Shown here piece by piece: positions 15,287-43,518 of a DNA stretch of 64,000 nucleotides (its first letter is position 1; each line of letters starts with the position of its first letter). Below the pieces are notes generated by a model. The model saw only the letters and a program-made list of their open reading frames with translations. It did not search any database and had not been told where the DNA came from. Location of the stretch: contig JBBFKX010000002.1 in NCBI GenBank assembly GCA_037481815.1, positions 15,300-79,299 of the forward strand. Direction: 5' to 3'. Position numbers and translations under genes: made by a program. This DNA is from a candidate division WOR-3 bacterium. GTDB lineage: Bacteria; Hydrothermota; 32-111.

Positions 15287-15341
15287 ATCCCCCTCCTGAC
15301 AGCGAAATAACCATCAAATTTTTTATAATAATTAGAAAAAT

Positions 15342-29793: not shown

Positions 29794-30291
29794 TTACTTG
29801 AACAGATCATCAAGTTCACTTTCTGCTGCCTTTTTGAAATCTTCGTTAAAAGTATCTTTCATTCTTTCTGTGTTACTGCTCAATTTAGCAAATATATTGT
29901 TGAAAATCCTTTCGAGTTCAGTAACAGTTGTTTTGATTCTTATTCTGATAAGTCCAAGGTTTGTGGTTTTACCAAAAATAACAACGAGGATTATTCTTGA
30001 TAGAATTATTGTTATATAAATATTTTCCTGTTTACCCTGATGAAAAAGTTCTGTAAACTCATCTTCACCTATAAGTAATGCAAGTTGACTCGTTGCTGCA
30101 AAATCTGCTGCTGCAAGTGAGCCAAACGAAACAAGGTCAAGGTTTGAAATATTTCCAACAGAAGTAATAAGTTGTCCTGCCTTGTCGACAAGAAGTAGTG
30201 CAGTTGCGTTTGTCGATGTTAAAAGTTTGTTTAATGAGTTATTTATATCCCAGAAATCTTGTTCAAATATGCTCAGATTTTCATAACTCAA
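29794..30291 (-). CDS. mglB: Roadblock/LC7-domain protein, MglB-like GAP partner of MglA
   Basis: 165 aa; immediately upstream of and co-oriented with mglA; roadblock-like composition and size. Confidence 0.65.
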
Positions 30292-30299
30292 AAATCCTC

Positions 30300-31223
30300 C
30301 TATCTATTTGAACATTCCTCTTTCTTCAAAAGGTTCTGATACTTTTCATTCAAAAATCTTCTTAACTCCTCAACAAGTTCAGGATTATTTTTAAGGTGTT
30401 TAAACCTTTGCTGTCTGAAAAGGAAATCCTCTAACGGTCTCTCTCTTTTTGGCTTAACATTCACCTTATATTTACCATTTTCATATTCATAAACATTCCA
30501 GAAATGTGTTGAAACAGCAAGTTCTGCAAGTTCAACTGTTTCAGATGGCTCTGAGCCCCAACCAAGTGGACATGGGGAAAGAACATCTATGAACGATGGA
30601 CCATCAACTTTTAAAGCTTTTTTTACTTTTTCAACAAAATCGTTCCAATAAAAAATAGATGCCTGTGCTACATAAGGAATATTGTGTGCGATCATGATTT
30701 CTGTAAGATCCTTTCTGTGTTGCATTTTTCCTTTGATACTTTTTCCAGCAGGACTTGTGGTGGTGTTTGCTCCAAAAGGTGTTGCTGAAGATCTCTGGAT
30801 ACCTGTGTTCATATATGCACCGTTATCATAACACACATACAAAAGTTTATGCCCTCTTTCCATCGCACCTGATAAAGATTGTAAACCGATATCATAGGTC
30901 CCACCATCACCACCAAAAGCGATTATGTTTATATCCTTGTTAATCTTCCCTTTTTTCTTTAAAGCTCTGTACGCACTTTCGATTCCACTCGCTGTTGCTG
31001 CTGAATTTTCAAAAGCGTTATGCATAAAAGGAACCTTCCACGATGAATATGGGTATATCGTTGAAACTACCTCCATACATCCGGTTGCTCCAACAAAAAC
31101 CGTATTCTCACCTGCCGCAGCAGCGATAAGTCTTAAAATTATTGTTCCCCCACACCCAGCACATGCTCTATGTCCCGGGGTGAACAGATTGCCTTTACTT
31201 GCTAACTCTTTTATATTTGCCAT
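30300..31223 (-). CDS. porB: pyruvate/2-oxoacid:ferredoxin oxidoreductase beta subunit (TPP-binding)
   Basis: GHRACAGCGG motif, TPP-binding GGDGG region; 307 aa. Confidence 0.85.
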   Translation of the reverse strand: MANIKELASKGNLFTPGHRACAGCGGTIILRLIAAAAGENTVFVGATGCMEVVSTIYPYSSWKVPFMHNAFENSAATASGIESAYRALKKKGKINKDINIIAFGGDGGTYDIGLQSLSGAMERGHKLLYVCYDNGAYMNTGIQRSSATPFGANTTTSPAGKSIKGKMQHRKDLTEIMIAHNIPYVAQASIFYWNDFVEKVKKALKVDGPSFIDVLSPCPLGWGSEPSETVELAELAVSTHFWNVYEYENGKYKVNVKPKRERPLEDFLFRQQRFKHLKNNPELVEELRRFLNEKYQNLLKKEECSNR

Positions 31224-31232
31224 TTTTTACTC

Positions 31233-32408
31233 CTACTCTCTAACAGTTATATATCTGACAGGATCACCTTTACCATTCTTTTCAGTGAAATCTTTAATAT
31301 CATAAAAAACTTTTTCGATATCATCAACATCAATATCCCTTCCCCCAAGGCCATAAACATAATCTCTCAAAATTGGCTTTGATGAGGAAATATACAAAGC
31401 AGATTTGATATCGTTGAAAAGATGCCCACCGGTTCCTGAGAACATATCACTCCTATCAAAAACAGCACAACCTTTAATATTTTTTAAAGATTCAATTATA
31501 TCTTCCTCAAAGAATGGTCTATAGAATCTTATTTTTAATGATCCAACTTTATGACCATCTTTTCTTAGTTTATCAACAACATATCTTATCGTTCCAGCTG
31601 TTGAACCAAGAGCAACAAGACAATACTCAGCATCATCCATCATATATTTTTCAACAACATTATAATTTCTTTTCATGTTTTTGTTAAAATCTTTCAGAAT
31701 CTCTTTTATCTTAGTTTTAGATTCTCTTATAAAGTTTGCCTGCTGGACCTTCACTTCCATATAATAATCCTGTAAAGCAAGAGGCCCGACGGTTATGGGA
31801 TTATCAACATCAAGAATATTGTACGGTGTCTTTGGTTCGCCAAGGTATTTTTTTACCTCCTCATCATCATACATCTCAACTCTTTGCATAGCATGGGAGA
31901 TTATGAAACCATCTGTTGTAACCATCGATGGAAGAAAAAGATTTTCAGAAATTTTTACAGCCAGAATCGTTTGATCGTAAGCCTCCTGTGGATCTTCTGA
32001 AAAAATCTGTATCCAGCCAGCATCCCTTGAAGCCATTGTATCAGAATGATCACAGTGTATGTTTATTGGAGCGGATAATGCTCTGTTGACTTCACATATT
32101 ACTATTGGCAACCTTAAACCACCTGCTATAAATAGAATTTCATGCATAAGAGCAAGTCCCTGCGATGAAGTCCCTGTCATAACTCTTGCCCCAGCTGCCG
32201 ATGCACCAACACAGGCTGAAATCGCTGAATGTTCAGATTCTGTTGGAACAAAAACTGTATCAACTTCTCCGTTATTAACAAAGGAAGAAAATATTTGAAC
32301 TATTTCCGTAGCAGGGGTTATTGGATATGCAGCGACAACATCAGGATTTATCTGTCTCATCGCTTCAGCCATAGCTTCATTACCCGTTTTTGCAACTATT
32401 TTTGACAT
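31233..32408 (-). CDS. porA: pyruvate/2-oxoacid:ferredoxin oxidoreductase alpha subunit
   Basis: 391 aa; conserved N-terminal MTGNEA-like region of the alpha subunit; operon context. Confidence 0.8.
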   Translation of the reverse strand: MSKIVAKTGNEAMAEAMRQINPDVVAAYPITPATEIVQIFSSFVNNGEVDTVFVPTESEHSAISACVGASAAGARVMTGTSSQGLALMHEILFIAGGLRLPIVICEVNRALSAPINIHCDHSDTMASRDAGWIQIFSEDPQEAYDQTILAVKISENLFLPSMVTTDGFIISHAMQRVEMYDDEEVKKYLGEPKTPYNILDVDNPITVGPLALQDYYMEVKVQQANFIRESKTKIKEILKDFNKNMKRNYNVVEKYMMDDAEYCLVALGSTAGTIRYVVDKLRKDGHKVGSLKIRFYRPFFEEDIIESLKNIKGCAVFDRSDMFSGTGGHLFNDIKSALYISSSKPILRDYVYGLGGRDIDVDDIEKVFYDIKDFTEKNGKGDPVRYITVRE

Positions 32409-32426
32409 TTTATTTCTCCTTATAAA

Positions 32427-32702
32427 TCATTTCTCTTCTTTTATCATATCGATAGCATCAAAAGGACAAACCTTACTACAGATACCACAACCTTTGCAGT
32501 GATCATAATCTATTCCTATCATTTTTCCATCTTTTATTATAATCGATGAATCAGGACAAAAAAGCCAGCACTGTAAACACTGTTTACATTTGTCACTCTT
32601 ATACAAAGGTTTTTCAGATCTCCAGTCACCAGTTTTGAATTCTTCCGCTGTTCCACCTTTTACTATAAGAGCTATATCAACTTCTTTCCAATTTTTTTTC
32701 AT
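32427..32702 (-). CDS. porD: pyruvate:ferredoxin oxidoreductase delta subunit (2x[4Fe-4S] ferredoxin)
   Basis: 91 aa; two CxxCxxCxxxCP-type cysteine clusters. Confidence 0.8.
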   Translation of the reverse strand: MKKNWKEVDIALIVKGGTAEEFKTGDWRSEKPLYKSDKCKQCLQCWLFCPDSSIIIKDGKMIGIDYDHCKGCGICSKVCPFDAIDMIKEEK

Positions 32703-33280
32703 TCTGAAACAACCTCCTCATAAGCCCTTTTTATGGATTTGATGTTTCCATCAACAACTTCGGGCTTATTTGCAAATTTCTTTTTCAATTTCTCTTCAGT
32801 ATCTTTTAACATTCTTTCAAAATCAAGAATTTTTGTCACCTTAACCAATGCCCCAAACATGGGTGTGTTAGGTTTATTTGCACCTATTTCTTCCAGAGAA
32901 ATTTTTGAAGCATCAACAGTATAGATTTTTATATTCTTATTGATCTTATATTTCTCTCTTATCTCTGATGGTTTTTTTACAGTGTTAACTATAAGTATTC
33001 CACCATCTTCCATTCCAGAAGTGGTATCAACTGTATCCATAAGCGATTGATCAAGAACCACAACAACATCGGGATTTTTGATCGGGGAATGTATCGTTAT
33101 CTCTTTGTCGGACAACCTGTTAAAAGATTGAACCGGTGCTCCCATTCTTTCAGGTCCATACTCTGGAAAAGCCTGGATATATTTACCTGTAGCCAGAGCT
33201 GAATCTGCAAAAAGAAGTGCAACAGTTTTTGCTCCCTGACCACCACGTCCATGCCATCTGATCTCAAAAAAATCTTTCAT
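32699..33280 (-). CDS. porG: pyruvate:ferredoxin oxidoreductase gamma subunit
   Basis: 193 aa; RWHGRGGQGAKT motif typical of the gamma subunit. Confidence 0.8.
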   Translation of the reverse strand: MKDFFEIRWHGRGGQGAKTVALLFADSALATGKYIQAFPEYGPERMGAPVQSFNRLSDKEITIHSPIKNPDVVVVLDQSLMDTVDTTSGMEDGGILIVNTVKKPSEIREKYKINKNIKIYTVDASKISLEEIGANKPNTPMFGALVKVTKILDFERMLKDTEEKLKKKFANKPEVVDGNIKSIKRAYEEVVSE

Positions 33281-33388
33281 CGTTTAACCTCCGATTCATT
33301 AAAACTATATTATATTTTAACTCTTTTTAAAGTCAAGAAAATTTTCTTTTCTATTGATTTATTGCTTAAAACAATTAAACTATCATTT

Positions 33389-34408
33389 ATGGAATCTATA
33401 TATAACTATACTTTAACAAAGTTGAAAGAAGATCTTGAAAAAAAAGGATTTAAACCTTTTCGAGCTGAACAGATCTACAAATGGTTATATTGTAAAAAAA
33501 TCAACGATTTTACAAAAATGACAGATATCTCTTTAAAAGAGAGAGAGATTTTAGAAAAAATCTATGATCTCTCTTTATTTAAAAACTTCTTAGAGTTCAT
33601 TTCAAAAGTTGATAGAACAAAAAAATATCTTTTCAATCTCTCAGAAAATGAGAGTATTGAAACTGTTCTTATGAAAGAAGGTAAAAGGACAACCATCTGT
33701 TTATCTTCACAAACAGGTTGTCCATTAAAATGCAGATTCTGTGCTACAGGGAAAAAAAGTGGTAGAAATCTTTCAATTGAGGAGATTGTAAAACAGTTTA
33801 CAACAATCTACTATTTAAACCCTGAAAGGATTACCAACATAGTTTTTATGGGTATGGGAGAACCTCTTTTGAACCTTTCAAACATTTTTGAAACGATAAA
33901 AATTTTTAACGAAGAAAAAGGTATTAAAATCGGGGCAAGGAAGATTACAATTTCGACTGCGGGAATAGTTGAAGGGATTGAAAGGATCATTGAATTTCCG
34001 CTACAGGTTAAACTTGCCGTTTCTTTGAACAGTGCAATAAAAGAAAAGAGAGAATATCTTATGCCCATAACAAAAACAAACAGCATCTCTGCATTGAAAA
34101 AAGTGTTAAAAAAATATCAGGAAATCAAAAAAAAGAGGATCACTTTTGAATATATAATCATTCCAGGATTCAACGATAGCGAAGAGGATATAAAACAACT
34201 TTTAAAATTTCTTTCAGAATTCGACTGTAAACTCAACCTAATTCCCTACAACAAGACGGGTGGAGAGTTCAGAGAACCAACAGAAAAGGAAATAAAAAAT
34301 TTCTTTGAAAAGGTTTCTGTTCTCAAAGATGCAGTATCTATCAGAAAAAGCAAAGGCAAAGATATTTCAGGCGCATGTGGACAGTTAAAAGGGAAATTCA
34401 TTTCTTAA
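33389..34408 (+). CDS. rlmN: 23S rRNA/tRNA (adenine-C2)-methyltransferase RlmN (radical SAM)
   Basis: Radical-SAM CxxxCxxC (CPLKCRFC), conserved FMGMGEPLLN; start moved to the internal ATG at 33389 (conserved N-terminus begins there). Confidence 0.85.
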   Translation: MESIYNYTLTKLKEDLEKKGFKPFRAEQIYKWLYCKKINDFTKMTDISLKEREILEKIYDLSLFKNFLEFISKVDRTKKYLFNLSENESIETVLMKEGKRTTICLSSQTGCPLKCRFCATGKKSGRNLSIEEIVKQFTTIYYLNPERITNIVFMGMGEPLLNLSNIFETIKIFNEEKGIKIGARKITISTAGIVEGIERIIEFPLQVKLAVSLNSAIKEKREYLMPITKTNSISALKKVLKKYQEIKKKRITFEYIIIPGFNDSEEDIKQLLKFLSEFDCKLNLIPYNKTGGEFREPTEKEIKNFFEKVSVLKDAVSIRKSKGKDISGACGQLKGKFIS

Positions 34409-34913
34409 ACAGAGGATACTTTTTAAAACCTAAAATAGAAGATATAAGATTATAAGGGAACTGTTCGATCTTTGTGTTGAAATTTGTAACACACCAATTA
34501 TAACTTTCCCTTCTATCAGCTATATGGTTTTCTATCGTTGTTATCCTTTTTTGAAGGTTCAGAAAATTTTCATTCGCTTTAAGGTCTGGATATTTTTCTG
34601 CCAATGCAAAAAGTTTTTTTGTTTCTTTACTTAAAGCATTATCAAATTTTGATTTTTCACTTATTTCCATATCATCAGAATAACCACTTCGGATTTTGAT
34701 AACCTTTGCAAGAGTTTCCTGTTCATAGGAAGCATAACCTTTTACAACTTCAATAAGGTTTGTTAACTCATCATTCCTTTGCTTTAAAAGAACATCAATA
34801 TTTGAAAGTGATTGAAATATTCTATTTTTTAAAAATATCAGATCGTTGTAAAGGATTATAAAAATTGTCAAAAGGAAAAACAAAAAAAACAAAAAAATTA
34901 TCATAAAAATCAT
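34398..34913 (-). CDS. LemA-family membrane protein
   Basis: N-terminal TM anchor then helical LemA-like domain; 171 aa. Confidence 0.75.
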   Translation of the reverse strand: MIFMIIFLFFLFFLLTIFIILYNDLIFLKNRIFQSLSNIDVLLKQRNDELTNLIEVVKGYASYEQETLAKVIKIRSGYSDDMEISEKSKFDNALSKETKKLFALAEKYPDLKANENFLNLQKRITTIENHIADRRESYNWCVTNFNTKIEQFPYNLISSILGFKKYPLFKK

Positions 34914-36619
34914 TAAAAACCTCCAATTAAAAAAATTAATATAATTAATAAAATAACCATTATAAAAGACGATATTAGAAAAATGTTAGAATACTTTAAG
35001 AATGTTCTTTCACTGAAATCTGAAATAAAAAGTATTTTATCATCTTTAGAATATACCAGTTCAAGATTTTCATTTTCTTTTCTTTCCATTAATTTTTTAT
35101 CGAAATCTTTTTCCATACTGATTTTTGCTATCTCCCATTCATCACTGTCTATTTGCTCATCTTTGTTAAGGTCAAAGTTTTTCATATAGTCATGGTCCAA
35201 TTTTTTTTCTTTAATAAATTCATTTTTCTCTTTCATATAATCTTTGTTCACAACAGAACCAACAACAAAAACTTCACTCATAACAGGTAAAATCTCTTCT
35301 TCGTATTTTACTTCACCAACATCTTCTGTTGAAAAAAATTTATAAAATGTCTTCGTATAAACCGTTTTATTCTTTAGATTGAATGTGGCATTTTCTGTTT
35401 TCACAGATATCCTGTTCCCGTGTTCATCCTGTACAATAAATTTTTCTGGCAGATACTCTCCAATATGTTCGAGTTGCCATTTTGTTTTTCCCTCACTATC
35501 CTTTACTTTTCTAAATTTTTTGTACTGAAAATACACACATTTTGTTCCTGAAATTGGGGATGGGATTGCATACTCATCGGTTATAAAACCCTTTATTTCA
35601 TTTATCCCAACACTGATCGATTCAATTTTTGAAAATGGTATCGATTCAAGAAAAACTTTAAGTTTGAAAACTTTCACAAATGAAATAAAATAATAGAAAA
35701 TCCCACCAAGAAAAATATAGGAAAGCAGGTTGATTTTACCTATTCTGAAAAGTATTAGAAAACTAAAAAAAATTATTCCAAAAGGTATAAAAAAAGTTTC
35801 CAGCAGATTAAATTTGTTTACAGGGATCCTTTTTTTCTTAAAAATCAGATCATTTGGTTTATAGATATTATATTTAAAATCATATACAAGGTTATTATAA
35901 TCCTTCGTTTTTTTTCTATCAACATATTTTTGGTCATATTCAAAAGAATAAATCCCTTCTTCAAAAAGCAAAGATGAAATCATTGAATATGTTTTTAAAT
36001 CAAAAAAAAGTTCTTCAACAAAATTTTCAGAGTAGTTCAAATCTTCATAAAAGACCGAAGAAAAATTTTTTAAGGATTCATAAAATTTAAAAAAATTTTC
36101 ACTTTTCGAATACTTTGAAAAATTTTTAAGATTTGTATAATTTATCCTTTCCTGCTCAAATTTCAAAAGTATATTTTTTTCATGGGAATACAAGTAGAAT
36201 TCAAAATTTGACTGTAACAGTAGTTTTTTTAAATTAACATTTTCAATTCTTGTTTTATCAATTCCAGCCAAAAAAAGCAACCTATCATTTTTAGAGATTG
36301 TTATCTCACCTTTTTCAGTAAAAAATTTATATGCCTGTTCATCATACCTAAAAGTGGACACATCTGCAACCTTTATAGATGAGATATCATGATCTGAAAG
36401 TACAACAGATTTAATATTAATGGAATTCAGTAAATCTTTAATCTTTTCTAACTCTTCCTTATTTTCAGATCTTTTTAATACAGCCCAACCTTTTCCAATA
36501 AATTTCTGTTTTAGGGTATAAACATCGATTTTGGTAGTATGAAAAATTTGTTCAAAAAATTCTTTGTCAACGGATTCTGTTCTATCAAAGATACATTTTA
36601 TAAAAAGTTTAAACTCCAT
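34913..36619 (-). CDS. large membrane protein, C-terminal half GIDE-like (TM pair, ~220-aa domain, terminal TM); N-terminal 265 aa unassigned
   Basis: Start codon overlaps the LemA stop (translational coupling); topology TM-TM-soluble-TM fits bacterial GIDE-domain proteins known to pair with LemA; assignment from architecture only. Confidence 0.4.
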   Translation of the reverse strand: MEFKLFIKCIFDRTESVDKEFFEQIFHTTKIDVYTLKQKFIGKGWAVLKRSENKEELEKIKDLLNSINIKSVVLSDHDISSIKVADVSTFRYDEQAYKFFTEKGEITISKNDRLLFLAGIDKTRIENVNLKKLLLQSNFEFYLYSHEKNILLKFEQERINYTNLKNFSKYSKSENFFKFYESLKNFSSVFYEDLNYSENFVEELFFDLKTYSMISSLLFEEGIYSFEYDQKYVDRKKTKDYNNLVYDFKYNIYKPNDLIFKKKRIPVNKFNLLETFFIPFGIIFFSFLILFRIGKINLLSYIFLGGIFYYFISFVKVFKLKVFLESIPFSKIESISVGINEIKGFITDEYAIPSPISGTKCVYFQYKKFRKVKDSEGKTKWQLEHIGEYLPEKFIVQDEHGNRISVKTENATFNLKNKTVYTKTFYKFFSTEDVGEVKYEEEILPVMSEVFVVGSVVNKDYMKEKNEFIKEKKLDHDYMKNFDLNKDEQIDSDEWEIAKISMEKDFDKKLMERKENENLELVYSKDDKILFISDFSERTFLKYSNIFLISSFIMVILLIILIFLIGGF

Positions 36620-36690
36620 CTTTTGATTATATAATTATCTAAACCAATTTCAATACTTGAACATTCTTTTTTAAAATATATAATTTTAGG

Positions 36691-37257
36691 ATGTATAAAA
36701 AAGAGATTGAAAGAAGGTTTCTTGTTATCGATAAAAACTATTCTAAAAAGATATCATTTTTTAACAGGAAAAGAATAATTCAGGGATACTATAGGTCCGA
36801 GGATTTAAAAAAAATAAAAGGTGTTGATGAAATTTTAAAAAAAAATCCTGAATTTATAAATAAAATCGTTAGAATAAGAATTGAAAATAAAAGAGATATC
36901 TTTTTTACACTAAAAAAAGGTGAAGGAATTGAAAGGGATGAATTTGAAATAAAACTTGATTTCGATGAAAAAATTTACAAATTTATGAAAAGTGATAAAA
37001 AAGTTCTGTCAAAAATAAGAGGAGAATTTTTCATTGAAGGATATAAAGCAATTTTAGACAGATATACCAAAAGATACAGAGGGATTGAAATAGTTGAAAT
37101 CGAATTTAAAACCGAACCCGAAGCAAAAAAGTTTCAACCTTCAAAAAGCTTAGTCGAGATAACCAATCTTAATGAGTTATCAAATATGAGTCTCTATTTT
37201 AAGGATGAAAAAGAAATAATTAAAAAAGTTGAGGAGAATTATGGTTATAAAAATTAA
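36691..37257 (+). CDS. CYTH-domain protein (triphosphate tunnel metalloenzyme-like)
   Basis: N-terminal EIERRFLV matches the CYTH ExExK-type start; 188 aa. Confidence 0.55.
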   Translation: MYKKEIERRFLVIDKNYSKKISFFNRKRIIQGYYRSEDLKKIKGVDEILKKNPEFINKIVRIRIENKRDIFFTLKKGEGIERDEFEIKLDFDEKIYKFMKSDKKVLSKIRGEFFIEGYKAILDRYTKRYRGIEIVEIEFKTEPEAKKFQPSKSLVEITNLNELSNMSLYFKDEKEIIKKVEENYGYKN

Positions 37258-38248
37258 AAACAGGATAATAAAGAAGGGGGATATTTTTATCATCGCTGAA
37301 GGAGGGGTTAACCATAACGGTGACATGAATCTAGCAAAAGAACTTATCGTTAAAGCGAAAGAGGCAGGAGCTGATGCTATAAAGTTTCAAACATATAAAA
37401 CAGAAAAGTTGATAATAAAAAACAAAAAAACAGAGAACTTTTTTAATATGATAAAAAGATTGGAACTCTCTGAAGAAGATTTTATAAAATTAAAGGATTT
37501 CGCAATAAAAAATGATATAATCTTTCTTTCAACACCAGATGAGGAAGATTCTTTAAATTTCCTGCTCTCATTAAATCTTCCTGCTATAAAAATAGGTTCA
37601 GGTGAAGCAAACAATATCGATTTTCTCATAAAAGTTGCAAAAACGAAAAAAGTAGTTTTGATATCAACAGGATGCTGTAACGAAGAAGAAATCGATAGAA
37701 TCTATCAAACCGTATACCCTTTGAATAAAAAGATGATACTTATGCATTGTATTTCAGAATACCCTGCTAAGATAGAATCTTTAAACCTTCAATTTATAAA
37801 AAAAATGATAAAAAAATATAATTGCCCGATTGGATTTTCTGATCACACTACTTCCATATTTACTCCATCGATTGCATACATACTTGGGGCAACAGTTATT
37901 GAAAAACATTTTACGCTTGATAAAAATCTTCCAGGACCAGACCATTCATCTTCTCTTGATGTTGGTGAATTCAAAAGTATGGTTAACTTGATTTATGAAA
38001 CAAAGGAAGCACTCGGTAAAGATATAAGGAAGATAACTGAAAGCGAGGACAGGATGAGAAAGTTCATAAGAAAATCTCTTTTTTCCAAAAGTGAGATAAA
38101 AAAAGGTGAAACCTTAACAAAAGAAAATACAATCCTTTTAAGACCAGAAATAGGGATAAGGGCTGATCAGGCAACAAAAGTTTATGGAAAAAGGATAAAA
38201 ATTAAAAAAAATAAATTTAAACCAATATTTTCAAATGAGATAGATTAG
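37229..38248 (+). CDS. N-acylneuraminate-9-phosphate / nonulosonic acid synthase family (NeuB/PseI/LegI-like)
   Basis: IIAEGGVNHNGDMNLAKELIVKAKEAGADAIKFQTYK is the NeuB-family TIM-barrel signature; start ambiguous (37229 or 37241). Confidence 0.8.
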   Translation: MRRIMVIKIKNRIIKKGDIFIIAEGGVNHNGDMNLAKELIVKAKEAGADAIKFQTYKTEKLIIKNKKTENFFNMIKRLELSEEDFIKLKDFAIKNDIIFLSTPDEEDSLNFLLSLNLPAIKIGSGEANNIDFLIKVAKTKKVVLISTGCCNEEEIDRIYQTVYPLNKKMILMHCISEYPAKIESLNLQFIKKMIKKYNCPIGFSDHTTSIFTPSIAYILGATVIEKHFTLDKNLPGPDHSSSLDVGEFKSMVNLIYETKEALGKDIRKITESEDRMRKFIRKSLFSKSEIKKGETLTKENTILLRPEIGIRADQATKVYGKRIKIKKNKFKPIFSNEID

Positions 38249-38403
38249 AAGATGGTGTATATGAATGGAGAAATTGTTGTTGATGTGAATAAAAAGATCA
38301 ATAAACCTAAAAGTAAAATTATGATAATAAGAGGGAGTAACCAGTATTTTTTCTTTTTCAACAAAAATTTCATCAAAGATTTCAGAGTTTTTAAAAATCC
38401 CAT

Positions 38404-38778
38404 TTAGAACGGCTCCTCAATATCAAATTCATCTTCCACATATTTGTTGTAATACGAACTCTCTTGTTTTTTTATATTCTTATAAAACCTTTTATCCATA
38501 ATGTAAAGTATCGGCTTAAACATTAAAAAAATTATATAATAGATTATAACTACTATCAATACTGTAAAAAGAAATGCAACAAACAAAAAGAGTTTATCCA
38601 ACAATTTTTTAGCAATAAATAATTTTTTCGGTAAAAATATTAAAAATAAGAGTGAAACCACTGTTAATGAAAAGAAAAAAATTTTCAGTAATCCAAATTT
38701 TCTAAAGATAAAGGTTAACATTAAAAATATTAAAACTACCTGAACGGATTTTAACCTTTCAATCATTCCTTTTTTCAA
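38404..38778 (-). CDS. small hypothetical membrane protein (3 predicted TM helices)
   Basis: 124 aa, hydrophobic, last gene of the long minus-strand gene string; no family recalled. Confidence 0.35.
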   Translation of the reverse strand: MKKGMIERLKSVQVVLIFLMLTFIFRKFGLLKIFFFSLTVVSLLFLIFLPKKLFIAKKLLDKLFLFVAFLFTVLIVVIIYYIIFLMFKPILYIMDKRFYKNIKKQESSYYNKYVEDEFDIEEPF

Positions 38779-40549
38779 TTTTAAAATCTCCCTTTTTTCT
38801 TACCTGTTCTTCTTTTCGTAACAGAAAATTACCAATTATTAAAACATCTATATCGGTTTCGATGAAAGTTTTAAAAGCATCTTCAGGATTTTCAACTATC
38901 GGCTGTCCCCTTACATTGAAGGATGTGTTTATGACCATAGGACATCCTGTCCTTTCATAAAAATTATAGATTAGCGAATAAAACAGTGGGTTACTCTCTT
39001 TGCTCACAAGTTGAACTCTTGAAGTAAAATCTGAATGGACCACAGATGGGAACTGTGTGATACTTTTCCTAAGAATTTTAAAATCATGTGTGATAAACTC
39101 TTCAGTGTTTTTAAAATCATCTTTAATTTCACATACTGTTAACATATAATGAGTGGGATAACCCTTTTTAAAAATCAGTTCATATTTATCTTCGAGAACA
39201 GCAGGTGCAAGTGGCCTGAAAGATTCTCTGAACTTAATCTTCATGTTCATTATTTTTTGCATTTCAGGATCCGTTGGATCACCTAAAATACTTCTATTTC
39301 CTAAAGCTCTTGGCCCATACTCCATTTTCCCCTGAAACCATCCAACAACTTTTTTCTTGAGTATCTCTTCACAACCAATAACATCAGGATTGGTTATTTT
39401 TTTGTAAACACCATTTAATCTTTTTAAACTTTCCTCGATCTCATGATCTGAATATTCTGTTCCAAGAAAAGAATAATTCTGACAACCCCTGATATTCAAA
39501 TTATAATATCTGTTCGCAACATACAAAGCGGCTCCAAGTGAACCACCAGCATCCCCTGATGCAGGTTGAATAAAAAATTTTTCAGGTTTATAAGATTCTA
39601 AAACTTTAGAATTCGCAACACAGTTTAAACCAACCCCTCCCCCGATTATCAAGTTTTTTTCTTTCGTTTCACTTTTCAACTTTAAAGCCATTTTTATAAG
39701 AATCTCCTCTAAAACCTTCTGAACAGAAGCAGCAATGTCTGCATACACTTCGTTTAAAGGTTGTTCTTCTTTTCTAATCTTTATTCCAAAAAGTTTTTCC
39801 ATCTGTTTCCCACACATCTGTAAACCATTCTGGAAATCAAAAAATTTCAAATTCAATCTGTAAGATCCATCATCTTTGATATCTATCAAATTCTCTTTTA
39901 TCAGAGAAACATACCGTGGAACACCATAGGGGGCAAGCCCCATCAATTTGTATTCACCTGAATTAACTTTAAATCCAGTAAAATAGGTAAATGTTGAATA
40001 AAACATCCCTAAAGAATGCGGATAATCTATAGAATATAGGATCTTTATGCTTTTATCATCAACAACTCCAAGAGTTGTTGTTTCCCATTCTCCAACACCA
40101 TCGTTTACCATAAATGCTGCTCTTTCAAGATCAGATGGATAGAAGGAAGAAGATATGTGTGAAACATGATGTGGAACATAGAATATTTTATAATTCCCCT
40201 TAATCAATTTTCTTAATTTAGATTCAGTATAAAGTTTATCTTTAATCCACAACGGTAAAGAAGTGAAAGCAAACTCAAAATTTTTCGGCGTCGAATAAAT
40301 CAGATTTTCAATTATTCTTTCAAATTTCAAAATCGGTTTATCATAGAAAACAATTGCTTTCAGATTTCCAGGATCAAAATCGAACTTTTTTTTAAGAATC
40401 TCTATTGATAACTCTGGTAACCTTTCATCAAATTTTATTTTAGAAAACCTTTCTTCCTGAAGAGCAGCAATAACCTTACCTTTTTTTATGTACGTTACAG
40501 ACGAATCGTGAAACAATGCCGAAATTCCTAAAATTTCTATTTCACTCAT
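38759..40549 (-). CDS. carbamoyltransferase (NodU/CmcH/TobZ family)
   Basis: 596 aa; N-terminal ILGISALFHDSSVTYIKKGKVIAALQEERFSKIK matches the carbamoyltransferase N-domain. Confidence 0.8.
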   Translation of the reverse strand: MSEIEILGISALFHDSSVTYIKKGKVIAALQEERFSKIKFDERLPELSIEILKKKFDFDPGNLKAIVFYDKPILKFERIIENLIYSTPKNFEFAFTSLPLWIKDKLYTESKLRKLIKGNYKIFYVPHHVSHISSSFYPSDLERAAFMVNDGVGEWETTTLGVVDDKSIKILYSIDYPHSLGMFYSTFTYFTGFKVNSGEYKLMGLAPYGVPRYVSLIKENLIDIKDDGSYRLNLKFFDFQNGLQMCGKQMEKLFGIKIRKEEQPLNEVYADIAASVQKVLEEILIKMALKLKSETKEKNLIIGGGVGLNCVANSKVLESYKPEKFFIQPASGDAGGSLGAALYVANRYYNLNIRGCQNYSFLGTEYSDHEIEESLKRLNGVYKKITNPDVIGCEEILKKKVVGWFQGKMEYGPRALGNRSILGDPTDPEMQKIMNMKIKFRESFRPLAPAVLEDKYELIFKKGYPTHYMLTVCEIKDDFKNTEEFITHDFKILRKSITQFPSVVHSDFTSRVQLVSKESNPLFYSLIYNFYERTGCPMVINTSFNVRGQPIVENPEDAFKTFIETDIDVLIIGNFLLRKEEQVRKKGDFKIEKRND

Positions 40550-42404
40550 ATTTGAAATCTTTAATATACGATTTTAAAATTTGACGAACATTACCTTCAG
40601 AATTTGTGAAATCATCAACCATTTTTTCAATTTTATCATTCTCTAACTTCTCCACTAAAAGAATTTTAAAGATCTTATCAAACCTTGTTTTTTCTATCTG
40701 TTCCTCTTCTCTATACAGTTCCTCATAAAGTTTTTCTCCTTTTCTTATTCCAGTATAAACTATCTTTATATCCTTATGGGGAACATAACCATACATTCTT
40801 ATAATGTTCTCTGCAATATCATTTATTTTTACGGGTTTCCCCATATCGAGCATAAATGTTTCCCCACCTTCTCCAATACCTGCTGCTTCGAGACAAAGTG
40901 TTACCGCTTCCGCAATCGTCATAAAATATCTTGTCATATTTTTATCTGTTACCGTAACTGGCCCCCCGTTTTTTATCTGTTCTTCAAAAATTGGAATAAC
41001 ACTTCCCCTTGATCCAAGAACATTTCCAAATCTTACAGCGAAGTATTTTGTCAGAGGATCTTTCTGAGAAACAACAAGCATTTCTCCAATCCTTTTTGTA
41101 GCACCCATTATCGAAGATGGTTTAACAGCTTTATCAGTTGATATATAAAGAAATCTTTTAACCTTCCCTTTCGATGCTTTAATTAGATTGAAAGTTCCTA
41201 AAATATTTGTTTTTACAGATTCATAAGGGAATTCTTCACATATTGGGACATGTTTTAAAGCTGCAGCATGAAAGATGATGGATATTTTTTCTTTTTCAAT
41301 AACCTTTACCATATCTGAAAAATTCCTGATATCAGCAAGAACTATTTTTATATCTTTTGAATATCTCTGCTTCATTCTTTCCTTAAGATAAAAAAGTTCA
41401 GTTTCGTTTATATCAAGTGCATACACATTTGCAGCTTTAAATTTAACAACCTGGTTTATAATCTCACTACCGATCGATCCAGCAGCACCTGTAACAAGTA
41501 CATTCTCTCCATCAAGATAACTGCCTATCAATCCAAGATCATATGAAACCTTTTCTCTCCCCAAAAGGTCTGTAATGTCTATATTTCGTACATCTTTTGA
41601 AGATACTTTCCCATCAACAATACTATCAACCGATGGAAGAACTTTTATTTCTTTACATCCACTTTTTTCCAAATTTCTGTATATCTTCTGTAAATTTTCT
41701 CTATCAAGAGATGGTATCGCTATCAGTACAGTGTAACAATCGTTCTCCTTCATTACACTTTTTAAAATCTCGCTCCCACCAACAACCTTTAATCCATGAA
41801 TCCTGTTTCCTTTTTTCTTTGGATCATCATCAATGAATAGGATAGGATTGTACTCACTTTTTCTTGAAAGCATATCCCTTACAATCTGTTCACCAGCATC
41901 CCCTGCACCATAGATAATAATTTTTTTCCTTTTTTCCATCTCCCTTCGACCTTCAAAAGAGAGCAAAAACCTTTTTAAACTTCTCAAAGTCAAAAGAAAC
42001 CAGAGTGAGAAGAAATAATCAAGAAAAAAAACCGATCTAGGTAAAAAGGAAAGAATTTGATTCTTCAAAAAGAATAGAGATATGTAAAAGGAAATAAACT
42101 GTGAAAAAGTCAGTGCGATTCCAAGTTTTATAGCATCCTTAAAAGAAAAATACCTCCAGTTGAAAGAATATATATCAAAAATAAACAGAAAAAAAATTTT
42201 GGAAACAATAAAAATTGGAAGGAAGTTTTTATAGAGTTTAAAATTTAAAAAGACCTCCGTTATACTGAATCTGATACTGAATGAAAGAAAATATGATAAT
42301 GTGAAAAGAAACAGATCAAACAGAACAAAAAAAATTATTCTTTTCAGATAACTAGGTTTAAACAGATCTTCTTTCAAAAAATTCTTTAATCTTTTTATAA
42401 ACAT
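40542..42404 (-). CDS. membrane-anchored UDP-sugar 4,6-dehydratase (CapD/PglF/WbpM family)
   Basis: N-terminal 4 TM helices, two Rossmann regions (IIIYGAGDAGEQI and LVTGAAGSIGSEI); start uncertain, the ORF-track start 42458 overlaps the upstream gene by about 100 nt. Confidence 0.8.
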   Translation of the reverse strand: MFIKRLKNFLKEDLFKPSYLKRIIFFVLFDLFLFTLSYFLSFSIRFSITEVFLNFKLYKNFLPIFIVSKIFFLFIFDIYSFNWRYFSFKDAIKLGIALTFSQFISFYISLFFLKNQILSFLPRSVFFLDYFFSLWFLLTLRSLKRFLLSFEGRREMEKRKKIIIYGAGDAGEQIVRDMLSRKSEYNPILFIDDDPKKKGNRIHGLKVVGGSEILKSVMKENDCYTVLIAIPSLDRENLQKIYRNLEKSGCKEIKVLPSVDSIVDGKVSSKDVRNIDITDLLGREKVSYDLGLIGSYLDGENVLVTGAAGSIGSEIINQVVKFKAANVYALDINETELFYLKERMKQRYSKDIKIVLADIRNFSDMVKVIEKEKISIIFHAAALKHVPICEEFPYESVKTNILGTFNLIKASKGKVKRFLYISTDKAVKPSSIMGATKRIGEMLVVSQKDPLTKYFAVRFGNVLGSRGSVIPIFEEQIKNGGPVTVTDKNMTRYFMTIAEAVTLCLEAAGIGEGGETFMLDMGKPVKINDIAENIIRMYGYVPHKDIKIVYTGIRKGEKLYEELYREEEQIEKTRFDKIFKILLVEKLENDKIEKMVDDFTNSEGNVRQILKSYIKDFKYE

Positions 42405-43518
42405 ATTTCTGCTCCATAACAGAGAGTCCAGTAAAAAATGGAATAGCAACAAGTTCATCAGATATTTTTTCAGTTACAGGGAAATCTCCATTTTTAAAAC
42501 CAAAAATTTTTTTATAGAAGGGTTGAAGGTGTATTGGATAAAAATACCTTTTTGAAGATATTCCACTTTTATTTAAAAATTCTATTAACTCGTTTCTAAT
42601 CTTTTTATCCACAAATATATAAAATAAAAACCATGAATTCTTTTGCCCTTCAATCAAAGAAGGCAACTTTATCTCCTTTATTCTATTCAACAACTCCATA
42701 TATCTTTTCGCAACATTCTCTCTTCTTTTTAAAATTTCTTCCAGATTTTCCATCTGTGCCAAGCCAATAGCTGAATTTATATCACTAACCCTGAAATTGT
42801 ATCCAAGATATCTATGTATAAAGTTCGGGTCACCTTCCATCCTTCCCTGATTTCTTAACGCTTTAAGATAAAGATAGAGTTTTTTATCATCGGTTACAAT
42901 CATTCCACCTTCACCTGTTGTAATCTGCTTATTCGGATAGAAAGCGAAAACTGCCCCCCTCCCAAAAATACCAGATTTTTTACCTTTAAATTCACTCCCA
43001 AGCGATTCTGACGAATCCTCAAACAATAAAAGATTGTAATCGTTACATAACTCTTCGATCTTTTGATAATCACACAGATTCCCAAGAATGTCTACCGAGA
43101 GGATACCTTTTAAAATTTTTCCATTTTTTTTGTTCACAATTTTTTTGCCCTTTTTTTTATAATCACTTTTTATCTTCCTTTCGATCAGATCAGGAGAAAT
43201 ACACAAACTCTTTTCATCTATATCGACAAAAACCGGACTTGCATTACAGTACAAAATCGAATTTGCAGATGCTATGAATGAAAAAGGGGTTGTAATTATT
43301 TCATCGTTACTTTGAATTCCAGCTGCTTTTAAAAGTAGGAAGAGTCCAGCGGTTCCAGATGATACCATAACGGCATATTTTCTACCAACATAATCTTTAA
43401 ATATGTTCTCAAATTTCTCTGTATATTCCCCCATGCTGAGTTTTTCAGATTTAAGCAGAAAATCCACATACTTTTTTTCATTACCTTTAAAATACAAACC
43501 AGATAATGGAATCTTCAT
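42358..43518 (-). CDS. DegT/DnrJ/EryC1/StrS-family PLP aminotransferase
   Basis: 386 aa; N-terminal LSMGEYTEKFENIFKDYVGRKYAVMVSSGTAGL and PLP-Lys region FYPNKQITTGEGGMI. Confidence 0.85.
   Translation of the reverse strand: MKIPLSGLYFKGNEKKYVDFLLKSEKLSMGEYTEKFENIFKDYVGRKYAVMVSSGTAGLFLLLKAAGIQSNDEIITTPFSFIASANSILYCNASPVFVDIDEKSLCISPDLIERKIKSDYKKKGKKIVNKKNGKILKGILSVDILGNLCDYQKIEELCNDYNLLLFEDSSESLGSEFKGKKSGIFGRGAVFAFYPNKQITTGEGGMIVTDDKKLYLYLKALRNQGRMEGDPNFIHRYLGYNFRVSDINSAIGLAQMENLEEILKRRENVAKRYMELLNRIKEIKLPSLIEGQKNSWFLFYIFVDKKIRNELIEFLNKSGISSKRYFYPIHLQPFYKKIFGFKNGDFPVTEKISDELVAIPFFTGLSVMEQKYVYKKIKEFFERRSV

Follow-up and report, generated by a model that had tools for sequence, protein, structure and literature searches.

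The genome of a candidate division WOR-3 bacterium (assembly GCA_037481815.1) encodes on contig JBBFKX010000002.1 the pair of membrane protein genes that we analyse here. The stretch of DNA studied (hereafter, the window) is 64,000 nucleotides (nt) long, corresponds to positions 15,300 to 79,299 of the contig and has a GC content of 30%; positions are counted from its first base. On the minus strand, a gene for a 568-amino-acid (aa) protein assigned to the GIDE/BAM family, with three predicted transmembrane (TM) helices and an EF-hand-type loop, is directly followed by lemA, encoding a LemA protein of 171 aa. We describe the gene structure of the pair, the family membership of the products, their adjacency in genomes and metagenomes, the conservation of the loop and the folds predicted with AlphaFold2 (AF2). 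An earlier note, made from the sequence alone, had correctly placed the pair at 34398..36619 with a one-base overlap at 34913, and had reversed the order of the genes. In the ORF (open reading frame) listing, the 568-aa gene runs from 36619 to 34913 and is the upstream gene, and lemA begins where it ends and runs to 34398.

Table 1 Features of the LemA-GIDE gene pair in the window. Gene coordinates include the stop codon; aa numbers refer to the 568-aa protein.
Feature	Position	Strand	Basis
Gene 1, 568-aa GIDE/BAM-family protein with three TM helices and an EF-hand-type loop	34913..36619	-	ORF, homologues, profile search, AF2
Gene 2, lemA, 171 aa, N-terminal TM helix followed by helical LemA domain	34398..34913	-	PF04011, PDB 2ETD, hydropathy, 63 partner LemAs
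GGAGG, Shine-Dalgarno sequence for lemA	34920..34924	-	Sequence; lies within the terminal Gly-Gly codons of gene 1, followed by TTTTTA and ATG
Promoter-like TTGAAA-16 nt-TATAAT, putative function	36626..36653	-	Consensus scan, 11/12 matches; consensus match only
Alpha/beta subdomain, aa 1-80, beta-alpha-alpha-beta-alpha-beta, predicted fold like ClpS and the L7/L12 C-terminal domain	36380..36619	-	
Beta-sandwich plus helix (PH-like) and small helical subdomain, aa 83-220	35960..36373	-	Conserved motif SKYSKSEN at aa 168-175
Hairpin of two TM helices, aa 272-320	35660..35806	-	Hydropathy, AF2 helices, distribution of Lys and Arg over 99 relatives
OB-like beta-barrel core of the GIDE/BAM domain, aa 326-458	35246..35644	-	Motifs IPxSK, G-x-x-E-x-x-G, IPSPISG and GEYLP
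Helix-loop-helix inserted in the GIDE domain, aa 461-511	35087..35239	-	12-residue loop DLNKDEQIDSDE, aa 483-494 (35138..35173), coordinates checked
C-terminal TM helix, aa 546-566	34922..34984	-	Hydropathy peak 3.34; AF2 helix 537-566

The junction between the two genes is very tight. It reads ATT GGA GGT TTT TAATG on the minus strand, where the last base of the TAA stop codon of the 568-aa gene (34915..34913) is also the A of the lemA ATG (34913..34911), and this is the single base common to both ORFs. The GGAGG ends 6 nt upstream of this ATG. It is kept in the seven WOR-3-type loci (L001-L007) and in an Acidobacteria relative of 25% identity (L009), while the stop-start junction differs among them, the extremes being an overlap of 4 nt and a gap of 1 nt. 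The C-terminal Gly-Gly of the protein (34916..34924, minus strand; L001-L005 and L009) is thus encoded by the same GGAGG that serves as the ribosome-binding site of lemA. In L006 and L007 the GGAGG sits in the final Trp-Arg codons instead, and since it is kept though the codons differ, what selection conserves here may be the nucleotides rather than the protein.

Upstream of the pair, 6 nt separate the -10 hexamer TATAAT of the promoter-like site from the ATG of the 568-aa gene, and no clear Shine-Dalgarno sequence was seen between them (36619..36653, minus strand); the mRNA of this gene may therefore be leaderless. At the other end, lemA on the minus strand and rlmN on the plus strand converge, with 3' ends overlapping by 11 nt (34398..34408). 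No terminator-like hairpin was found in 34200..36900. The promoter-like site upstream and the convergence on rlmN together delimit a unit of two genes, which is probably a translationally coupled bicistronic operon.

The product of the downstream gene is a LemA protein, as had been proposed, with 158 bits to PF04011 (threshold 26.2, E=1.9e-46) and a match to PDB 2ETD over aa 23-169 (E=1.7e-23). Its N-terminal TM helix lies at about aa 2-22 (34848..34910, hydropathy 3.32), and the LemAs that accompany relatives of the 568-aa protein are strongly conserved (63 sequences). The MamQ equivalog (NCBIfam NF040966) was rejected, with 82.8 bits against a cut-off of 250.

The 568-aa protein needed a more indirect assignment. 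It scores 21.1 bits against PF12483, the GIDE profile (E=2.3e-4), which is below the gathering score of 23.6, and the alignment joins only profile positions 42-107 to aa 395-459; NCBIfam gave no match. A word-indexed search found 17 clusters of full-length homologues with 34-100% identity, all 565-570 aa long, whose named members come from WOR-3-type metagenome-assembled genomes (MAGs) and one unclassified bacterium MAG; the protein of 100% identity is annotated in a MAG of a candidate division WOR-3 bacterium. A profile of 14 homologues, searched against 1.84 billion representatives, matched 1,390 proteins at E<=1e-3 and 343 at E<=1e-10. With 17 full-length homologue clusters and 1,390 profile matches, the gene pair is real and not a product of chance ORFs. 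The profile matches have three architectures: proteins of ~565 aa like the window protein, a form of ~620-720 aa that shares its N-domain and C-terminal half, and proteins of ~270-340 aa with the TM(s)-GIDE-TM part only.

The relatives carry the GIDE signal that is faint in the window protein. Precomputed PF12483 matches exist for three close homologues (P0003, P0013 and P0014, 56-83% identity), and P0059, which the A1 profile finds over its full length at E=3e-28, has a GIDE score of 48.5 bits. The threshold was passed by seven of ten sampled distant relatives, and 48 of the 50 members of a broad alignment (A2) match GIDE at E<=0.01 (best 1.7e-17). The assignment by the PF12483 profile that the earlier note had suggested therefore falls short for the window protein itself and holds transitively: on these sequence relationships the 568-aa protein belongs to the GIDE/BAM family, and the window clade is simply divergent in its GIDE score. 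Searching the database again with A2 gave only the 17 close homologues already known and added nothing on taxonomy. Invariant in the 50 sequences are E341, E494, E537 and D483, and further invariant residues are P328, G338, G344, G454 and K473. The Pfam description of the domain notes a single invariant residue, a glutamate, for which E341, E494 and E537 are the candidate counterparts.

The homology of this domain to one in a eukaryotic mitochondrial E3 ligase, and its lack of an established bacterial function, had been stated in the earlier note and agree with the literature, in which prokaryotic BAM homologues without RING are known and their function is open (PMC4457424). No RING domain was matched in any of the 50 members, and the 568-aa protein ends 2 residues past its last TM helix (TM3). 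The Pfam label 'E3 ubiquitin ligase' is thus inapplicable, and the protein is not an E3 ligase. A sequence search of the PDB did not find a solved GIDE/BAM structure.

To follow the adjacency of the two genes, we used both assembled genomes and metagenomes. In all seven species-level genome loci (39-85% identity), lemA directly follows on the same strand, the two genes overlapping by 1 or 4 nt or standing 1 nt apart. Conservation in A2 was too low throughout to seed a metagenome scan; a narrower alignment (A3) of the ~650-aa family was used instead and recovered 80 loci. An adjacent co-oriented lemA is present in 67 of these, downstream in 56 and upstream in 11; the remaining 13 are broken off on one or both sides, and every locus that extends for 700 nt or more on both sides has lemA. 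Conserved co-occurrence with LemA, the test on which the proposal had been staked beforehand, was thus found at 7/7 genome loci and at 67/67 informative metagenome loci. All 11 loci with lemA upstream have short-form GIDE genes. One subgroup (L078-L092), with GIDE/EF-hand genes of ~300 aa, has lemA upstream at tight junctions (-8 to +20 nt). The adjacency is conserved and the gene order is not.

When six relatives were inspected one by one, five had an adjacent lemA: an Acidobacteria MAG, two unassigned contigs, a Deltaproteobacteria MAG and the cultured Desulfosalsimonas propionicica. Judging from these sequences, the LemA-GIDE pair occurs in many bacterial lineages. No recurrent third neighbour gene was found, so the unit consists of exactly two genes, and no LemA-GIDE fusion protein occurs among 164 relatives. 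In plasmids, the only tblastn matches to a short member were distant ones, in haloarchaeal genes labelled DUF3592 or 'E3 ubiquitin ligase family' (24-28% identity, E 3e-11 to 4e-8). These matches span the N-terminal 41-60% of the query only and end before its EF-hand match. No lemA lies next to the haloarchaeal gene in the 2 inspected of 4 plasmid matches, and the LemA link therefore seems specific to the present subfamily. Both families were known before, and automated names on relatives read "GIDE domain-containing" or "EF-hand domain-containing". In our literature searches we found no paper on the pairing with LemA, on the function of the pair, on the family-wide EF-hand insertion or on the N-terminal module; an H. 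neapolitanus screen mentions a lemA gene solely in a figure legend, and in Pseudomonas lemA is an old name of gacS.

The GIDE domain of this subfamily contains a conserved EF-hand-type loop, which the earlier note had missed. In the window protein the loop DLNKDEQIDSDE has D1, N3, D5, D9 and E12 at EF-hand ligand positions 1, 3, 5, 9 and 12 and I8 at hydrophobic position 8, and it is flanked by helices 476-482 and 492-511 in the AF2 model. The family consensus is [FY]-D-x-N-x-D-G-x-I-D-x-x-E-W. A loop pattern occurs in 160/164 relatives, compared with 2/1,960 unrelated ORFs of the same loci, and 159 of the 164 relatives carry the loop exactly once. D483 and E494, at loop positions 1 and 12, are both invariant in the 50 sequences. 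Weak EF-hand matches were present in all 10 sampled relatives, in the interval that separates the two blocks aligned to the GIDE model, and 37 of the 50 members have Pfam EF-hand matches (EF-hand_5). The sole PDB matches of the family profile are EF-hand proteins (polcalcins, E ~5e-4), and one close homologue is named "EF-hand domain-containing protein" in UniRef. Pfam gave no EF-hand match for the window protein itself. Its ligand pattern makes calcium binding by the loop plausible, and we consider binding combined with regulation by this putative EF-hand to be evenly balanced between true and false.

The full-length AF2 model has a pLDDT of 81.8 and a pTM of 0.51. The core of the GIDE domain is predicted to form a five-stranded barrel that can be superposed on known OB domains. 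The N-terminal 265 aa, which had been left unassigned, are indeed covered by no Pfam or NCBIfam model, and none of the 50 members has a Pfam family there; folds can now be assigned to them (ClpS/L12-like and PH-like). The N-domain is recognisable in 88/124 long matches. Modelled separately, it reaches a pLDDT of 87 and a pTM of 0.82 and comprises two parts (Table 1). Foldseek agrees on ClpS (prob 0.99, E=0.07), with nothing at E<=1e-3 against the PDB. The ClpS family PF02617 gave no match at E<=1 for the 568-aa protein, and an hhalign comparison of the N-domain with a manually entered E. coli ClpS sequence gave a probability of 0.1%. As modelled, the N-terminal part resembles ClpS in fold and is not a member of its family; the same fold is also found in ribosomal L7/L12, which argues for a generic interaction module.

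The proposed layout of a TM pair, a soluble domain and a terminal TM helix is borne out by hydropathy and by the AF2 model, at about aa 272-320 and 546-566. Hydropathy places TM1 and TM2 at ~272-292 and 298-320, and the corresponding AF2 helices are 272-293 and 296-326. Two TM helices before the domain and one after it were found in 85/113 long relatives. Counts of lysine plus arginine over 99 relatives are 2.65 before TM1, 1.77 in the TM1-TM2 loop, 3.04 after TM2, 2.21 before TM3 and 0.71 after TM3. The LemAs (69 sequences) have 0.33 such residues in the N-terminal tail (median 4 residues) and 1.51 after the TM helix. With no signal peptide ahead of the 270-aa N-domain and two TM helices behind it, the N-terminus and the GIDE domain should lie on one side of the membrane. 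On these grounds the N-module, the GIDE/EF-hand domain and the helical domain of LemA are likely all cytoplasm-facing.

The surroundings of the pair appear to be those of a housekeeping locus. An apparent four-subunit pyruvate:ferredoxin oxidoreductase (por) cluster lies at 29794..33280 on the minus strand, as read from ORF translations only. The listed rlmN ORF (385 aa) has an N-terminal extension of ~46 aa (33251..33390, plus strand) and thereby overlaps the por gamma-subunit gene at its start (33280); with the RlmN_N domain beginning only at aa 51, an internal ATG (MESIYNYT...) is probably the true start. On the other side, 37229..42458 contains a NeuB-family sialic-acid-type synthase (PF03102) and, from ORF translations only, apparent carbamoyltransferase-like and CapD-like polysaccharide genes. 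Synteny with rlmN, neuB and por is kept across the WOR-3 clade; elsewhere the neighbours are variable and mostly housekeeping. The GC content is unremarkable, no tRNA is present, and the 568-aa gene is single-copy in the window. The pair is not on an island.

A divergent ORF of 188 aa lies at 36691..37257 on the plus strand. It has no Pfam or NCBIfam match, begins with a CYTH-like EIERRFLV and matches PDB 2FBL/3TYP (hypothetical protein NE1496 / 'Uncharacterized protein', E=5e-4), which we take to be a CYTH / triphosphate-tunnel metalloenzyme. It is found in the same divergent position in 7/7 WOR-3-type loci (L001-L007) and is not recurrent in the wider family.

The closest well-known relative of the GIDE protein is MUL1/MAPL/GIDE, the mitochondrial outer-membrane E3 ligase, in which the homologous BAM domain (PF12483) is likewise held between TM helices. 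The window protein differs from MUL1 in having no RING, so that no ligase activity is expected, in the EF-hand-type helix-loop-helix inserted between Pfam model positions ~107 and 106-153, in the extra 265-aa N-terminal module and second N-terminal TM helix, and in the near-invariable LemA partner of its family. Its GIDE domain is also predicted to be cytoplasmic, whereas that of MUL1 faces the intermembrane space.

Gene 2 is typical of the LemA family (T. maritima TM0961, PDB 2ETD; MamQ), with an N-terminal TM helix and a helical domain. Compared with MamQ, it has no magnetosome genes around it, and its partner is a GIDE/EF-hand protein. SPFH (stomatin/flotillin)-NfeD operons offer an analogy, as two-gene membrane units of a scaffold and a TM-anchored OB-fold protein. 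In streptococci, LemA is encoded beside HtpX, a membrane metalloprotease. In S. pneumoniae, lemA lies next to the heat-shock gene htpX (SPD_1138/1139) and the transcripts of the two change alike (PMC8546594). There, too, a polytopic membrane protein is the neighbour of LemA, in this case a co-regulated one, although that partner is HtpX and no protease motif or match is present in the GIDE protein; the comparison suggests that different membrane proteins have LemA as a modular partner. Among LemA proteins, only MamQ has been tied to a cellular process; it has been proposed as a hub that organises proteins of the cytoplasmic membrane (PMC4902198), and a LemA-like domain has been modelled as a membrane-associated scaffold in mycobacterial phosphatidylinositol mannoside (PIM) synthesis (bioRxiv 10.64898/2026.07.15.738315).

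Taken together, we tentatively propose that the pair forms a membrane complex that responds to calcium and is organised by LemA on the cytoplasmic side, a possibility that we hold with well short of even confidence. Gene 1 would be a three-pass inner-membrane protein whose soluble parts, the N-module and the GIDE/BAM domain with its EF-hand-type loop, are cytoplasmic, and LemA would be a single-pass protein whose four-helix-bundle domain is predicted to be cytoplasmic as well. The two would form a complex at the inner-membrane face, and their physical interaction is, in our judgement, somewhat probable. LemA would act as the organising hub, as proposed for MamQ, and the GIDE protein as its dedicated membrane anchor and sensor. 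A rise in cytoplasmic calcium, for example upon envelope damage, would lead to binding at the lone EF-hand and change the conformation or pairing of the GIDE domains, and this change would reorganise the LemA scaffold and the cargo of the N-module, whose ClpS-like/PH-like parts may hold some ligand. The result would be that the membrane is organised or repaired locally, with no ubiquitin ligation involved; a membrane-stress output of this kind we regard as rather unlikely. In its strongest form, the pair would be a widespread calcium-triggered response to membrane damage, with the EF-hand reading calcium influx and LemA scaffolds sealing or remodelling the lesion, and this we think decidedly improbable.

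Several observations weigh against a calcium-responsive complex. EF-hands normally act in pairs, and there is a single loop here; pairing of loops between subunits is possible. Loop position 6 is Glu in the window protein, where 206/250 relatives have Gly and the window clade uses N, D, K or E, and this Glu may weaken or abolish calcium binding. The Pfam EF-hand scores of the relatives are below the 25-26 bit cut-offs or were given as E-values only (best 2.5e-6). With a full-length pTM of 0.51 the arrangement of the domains is unreliable, although the individual domains are credible, and the topology comes from hydropathy and the positive-inside heuristic. One relative, in a Myxococcota MAG (L008, GCA_054682455.1), has no adjacent lemA despite ample flanks, and it is the sole such case; its neighbours encode a Big_5-domain protein and a TldD/PmbA-type protein. 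Interaction, calcium binding and phenotype are proposals that we infer from the sequences. The homologous MUL1 domain of eukaryotes faces the intermembrane space (PMC4457424).

Two other readings survive about equally well, and each is unlikely in our view. The adjacency and the fold evidence would fit just as well a constitutive structural pair, a static scaffold in which the metal in the loop only stabilises the fold while a membrane domain is organised or the N-terminal module tethers a cytoplasmic ligand; it would sense no signal. The drift at position 6 in the WOR-3 clade suits a structural site better than a finely tuned sensory one, and the contexts are housekeeping with no regulator nearby. 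Such a pair would, however, not need all five canonical ligand positions to be kept across more than 150 divergent proteins, and cytoplasmic free calcium is normally too low for permanent occupancy, if the domain is cytoplasmic.

The second of these readings is an adaptor for membrane protein quality control, in which the ClpS-like N-domain would recruit substrates or an AAA+ protease and damaged membrane proteins would be marked or delivered. LemA would then act as it possibly does beside HtpX in Firmicutes, and the pair would be a prokaryotic counterpart of quality control by MUL1. The resemblance to ClpS is confined to a generic fold, however, with no sequence relation (PF02617, hhalign), no protease or AAA+ gene recurs beside the pair, and neither RING nor any other ligase domain is present.

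Less probable than these is a periplasm-facing envelope protein, with the GIDE/EF-hand and LemA domains outside the cytoplasm and a loop permanently loaded with calcium, serving envelope architecture. The topology of MUL1 (PMC4457424) speaks for it, as does a structure-prediction paper in which the C-terminal domain of LemA/MamQ is taken to be extracytoplasmic or lumenal (PMC3905215). The 270-aa N-domain without signal peptide and the two TM helices that follow it place the GIDE domain on the side of the N-terminus instead, and the positive-inside counts in 99 relatives and 69 LemAs run contrary to this orientation. A two-gene defence, abortive-infection or toxin-antitoxin-like membrane module, to which the compact unit with a membrane protein and the calcium or membrane effectors of some defence systems might point, is already disfavoured and very improbable, given no PADLOC match for either window protein or two relatives, no relatives found in viral contigs, and a single-copy locus in the window with housekeeping synteny (rlmN, neuB, por), ordinary GC and no recurrent neighbour.

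LemA is a very widespread bacterial membrane family, and the pairing turns two uncharacterised families into one defined two-protein system. One large BAM/GIDE subfamily has a near-invariable LemA neighbour, a conserved EF-hand-type loop and, usually, a conserved N-module that has no name. The residues D483, E494, P328, G338, E341, G344, G454, K473 and E537 are targets for mutation, and at least one host, Desulfosalsimonas propionicica, is in culture; its protein, HNR65_002998, is a relative with Gly at loop position 6. If the pair did respond to membrane damage, it would be an analogue of eukaryotic calcium-dependent membrane repair, would give LemA its first general function and would suggest an ancestral role for the BAM domain of MUL1. 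Calcium sensing, if true, would add to the few cases of cytoplasmic calcium signalling at bacterial membranes; if it is false, the pair still identifies a specific LemA client on which structural work can build.

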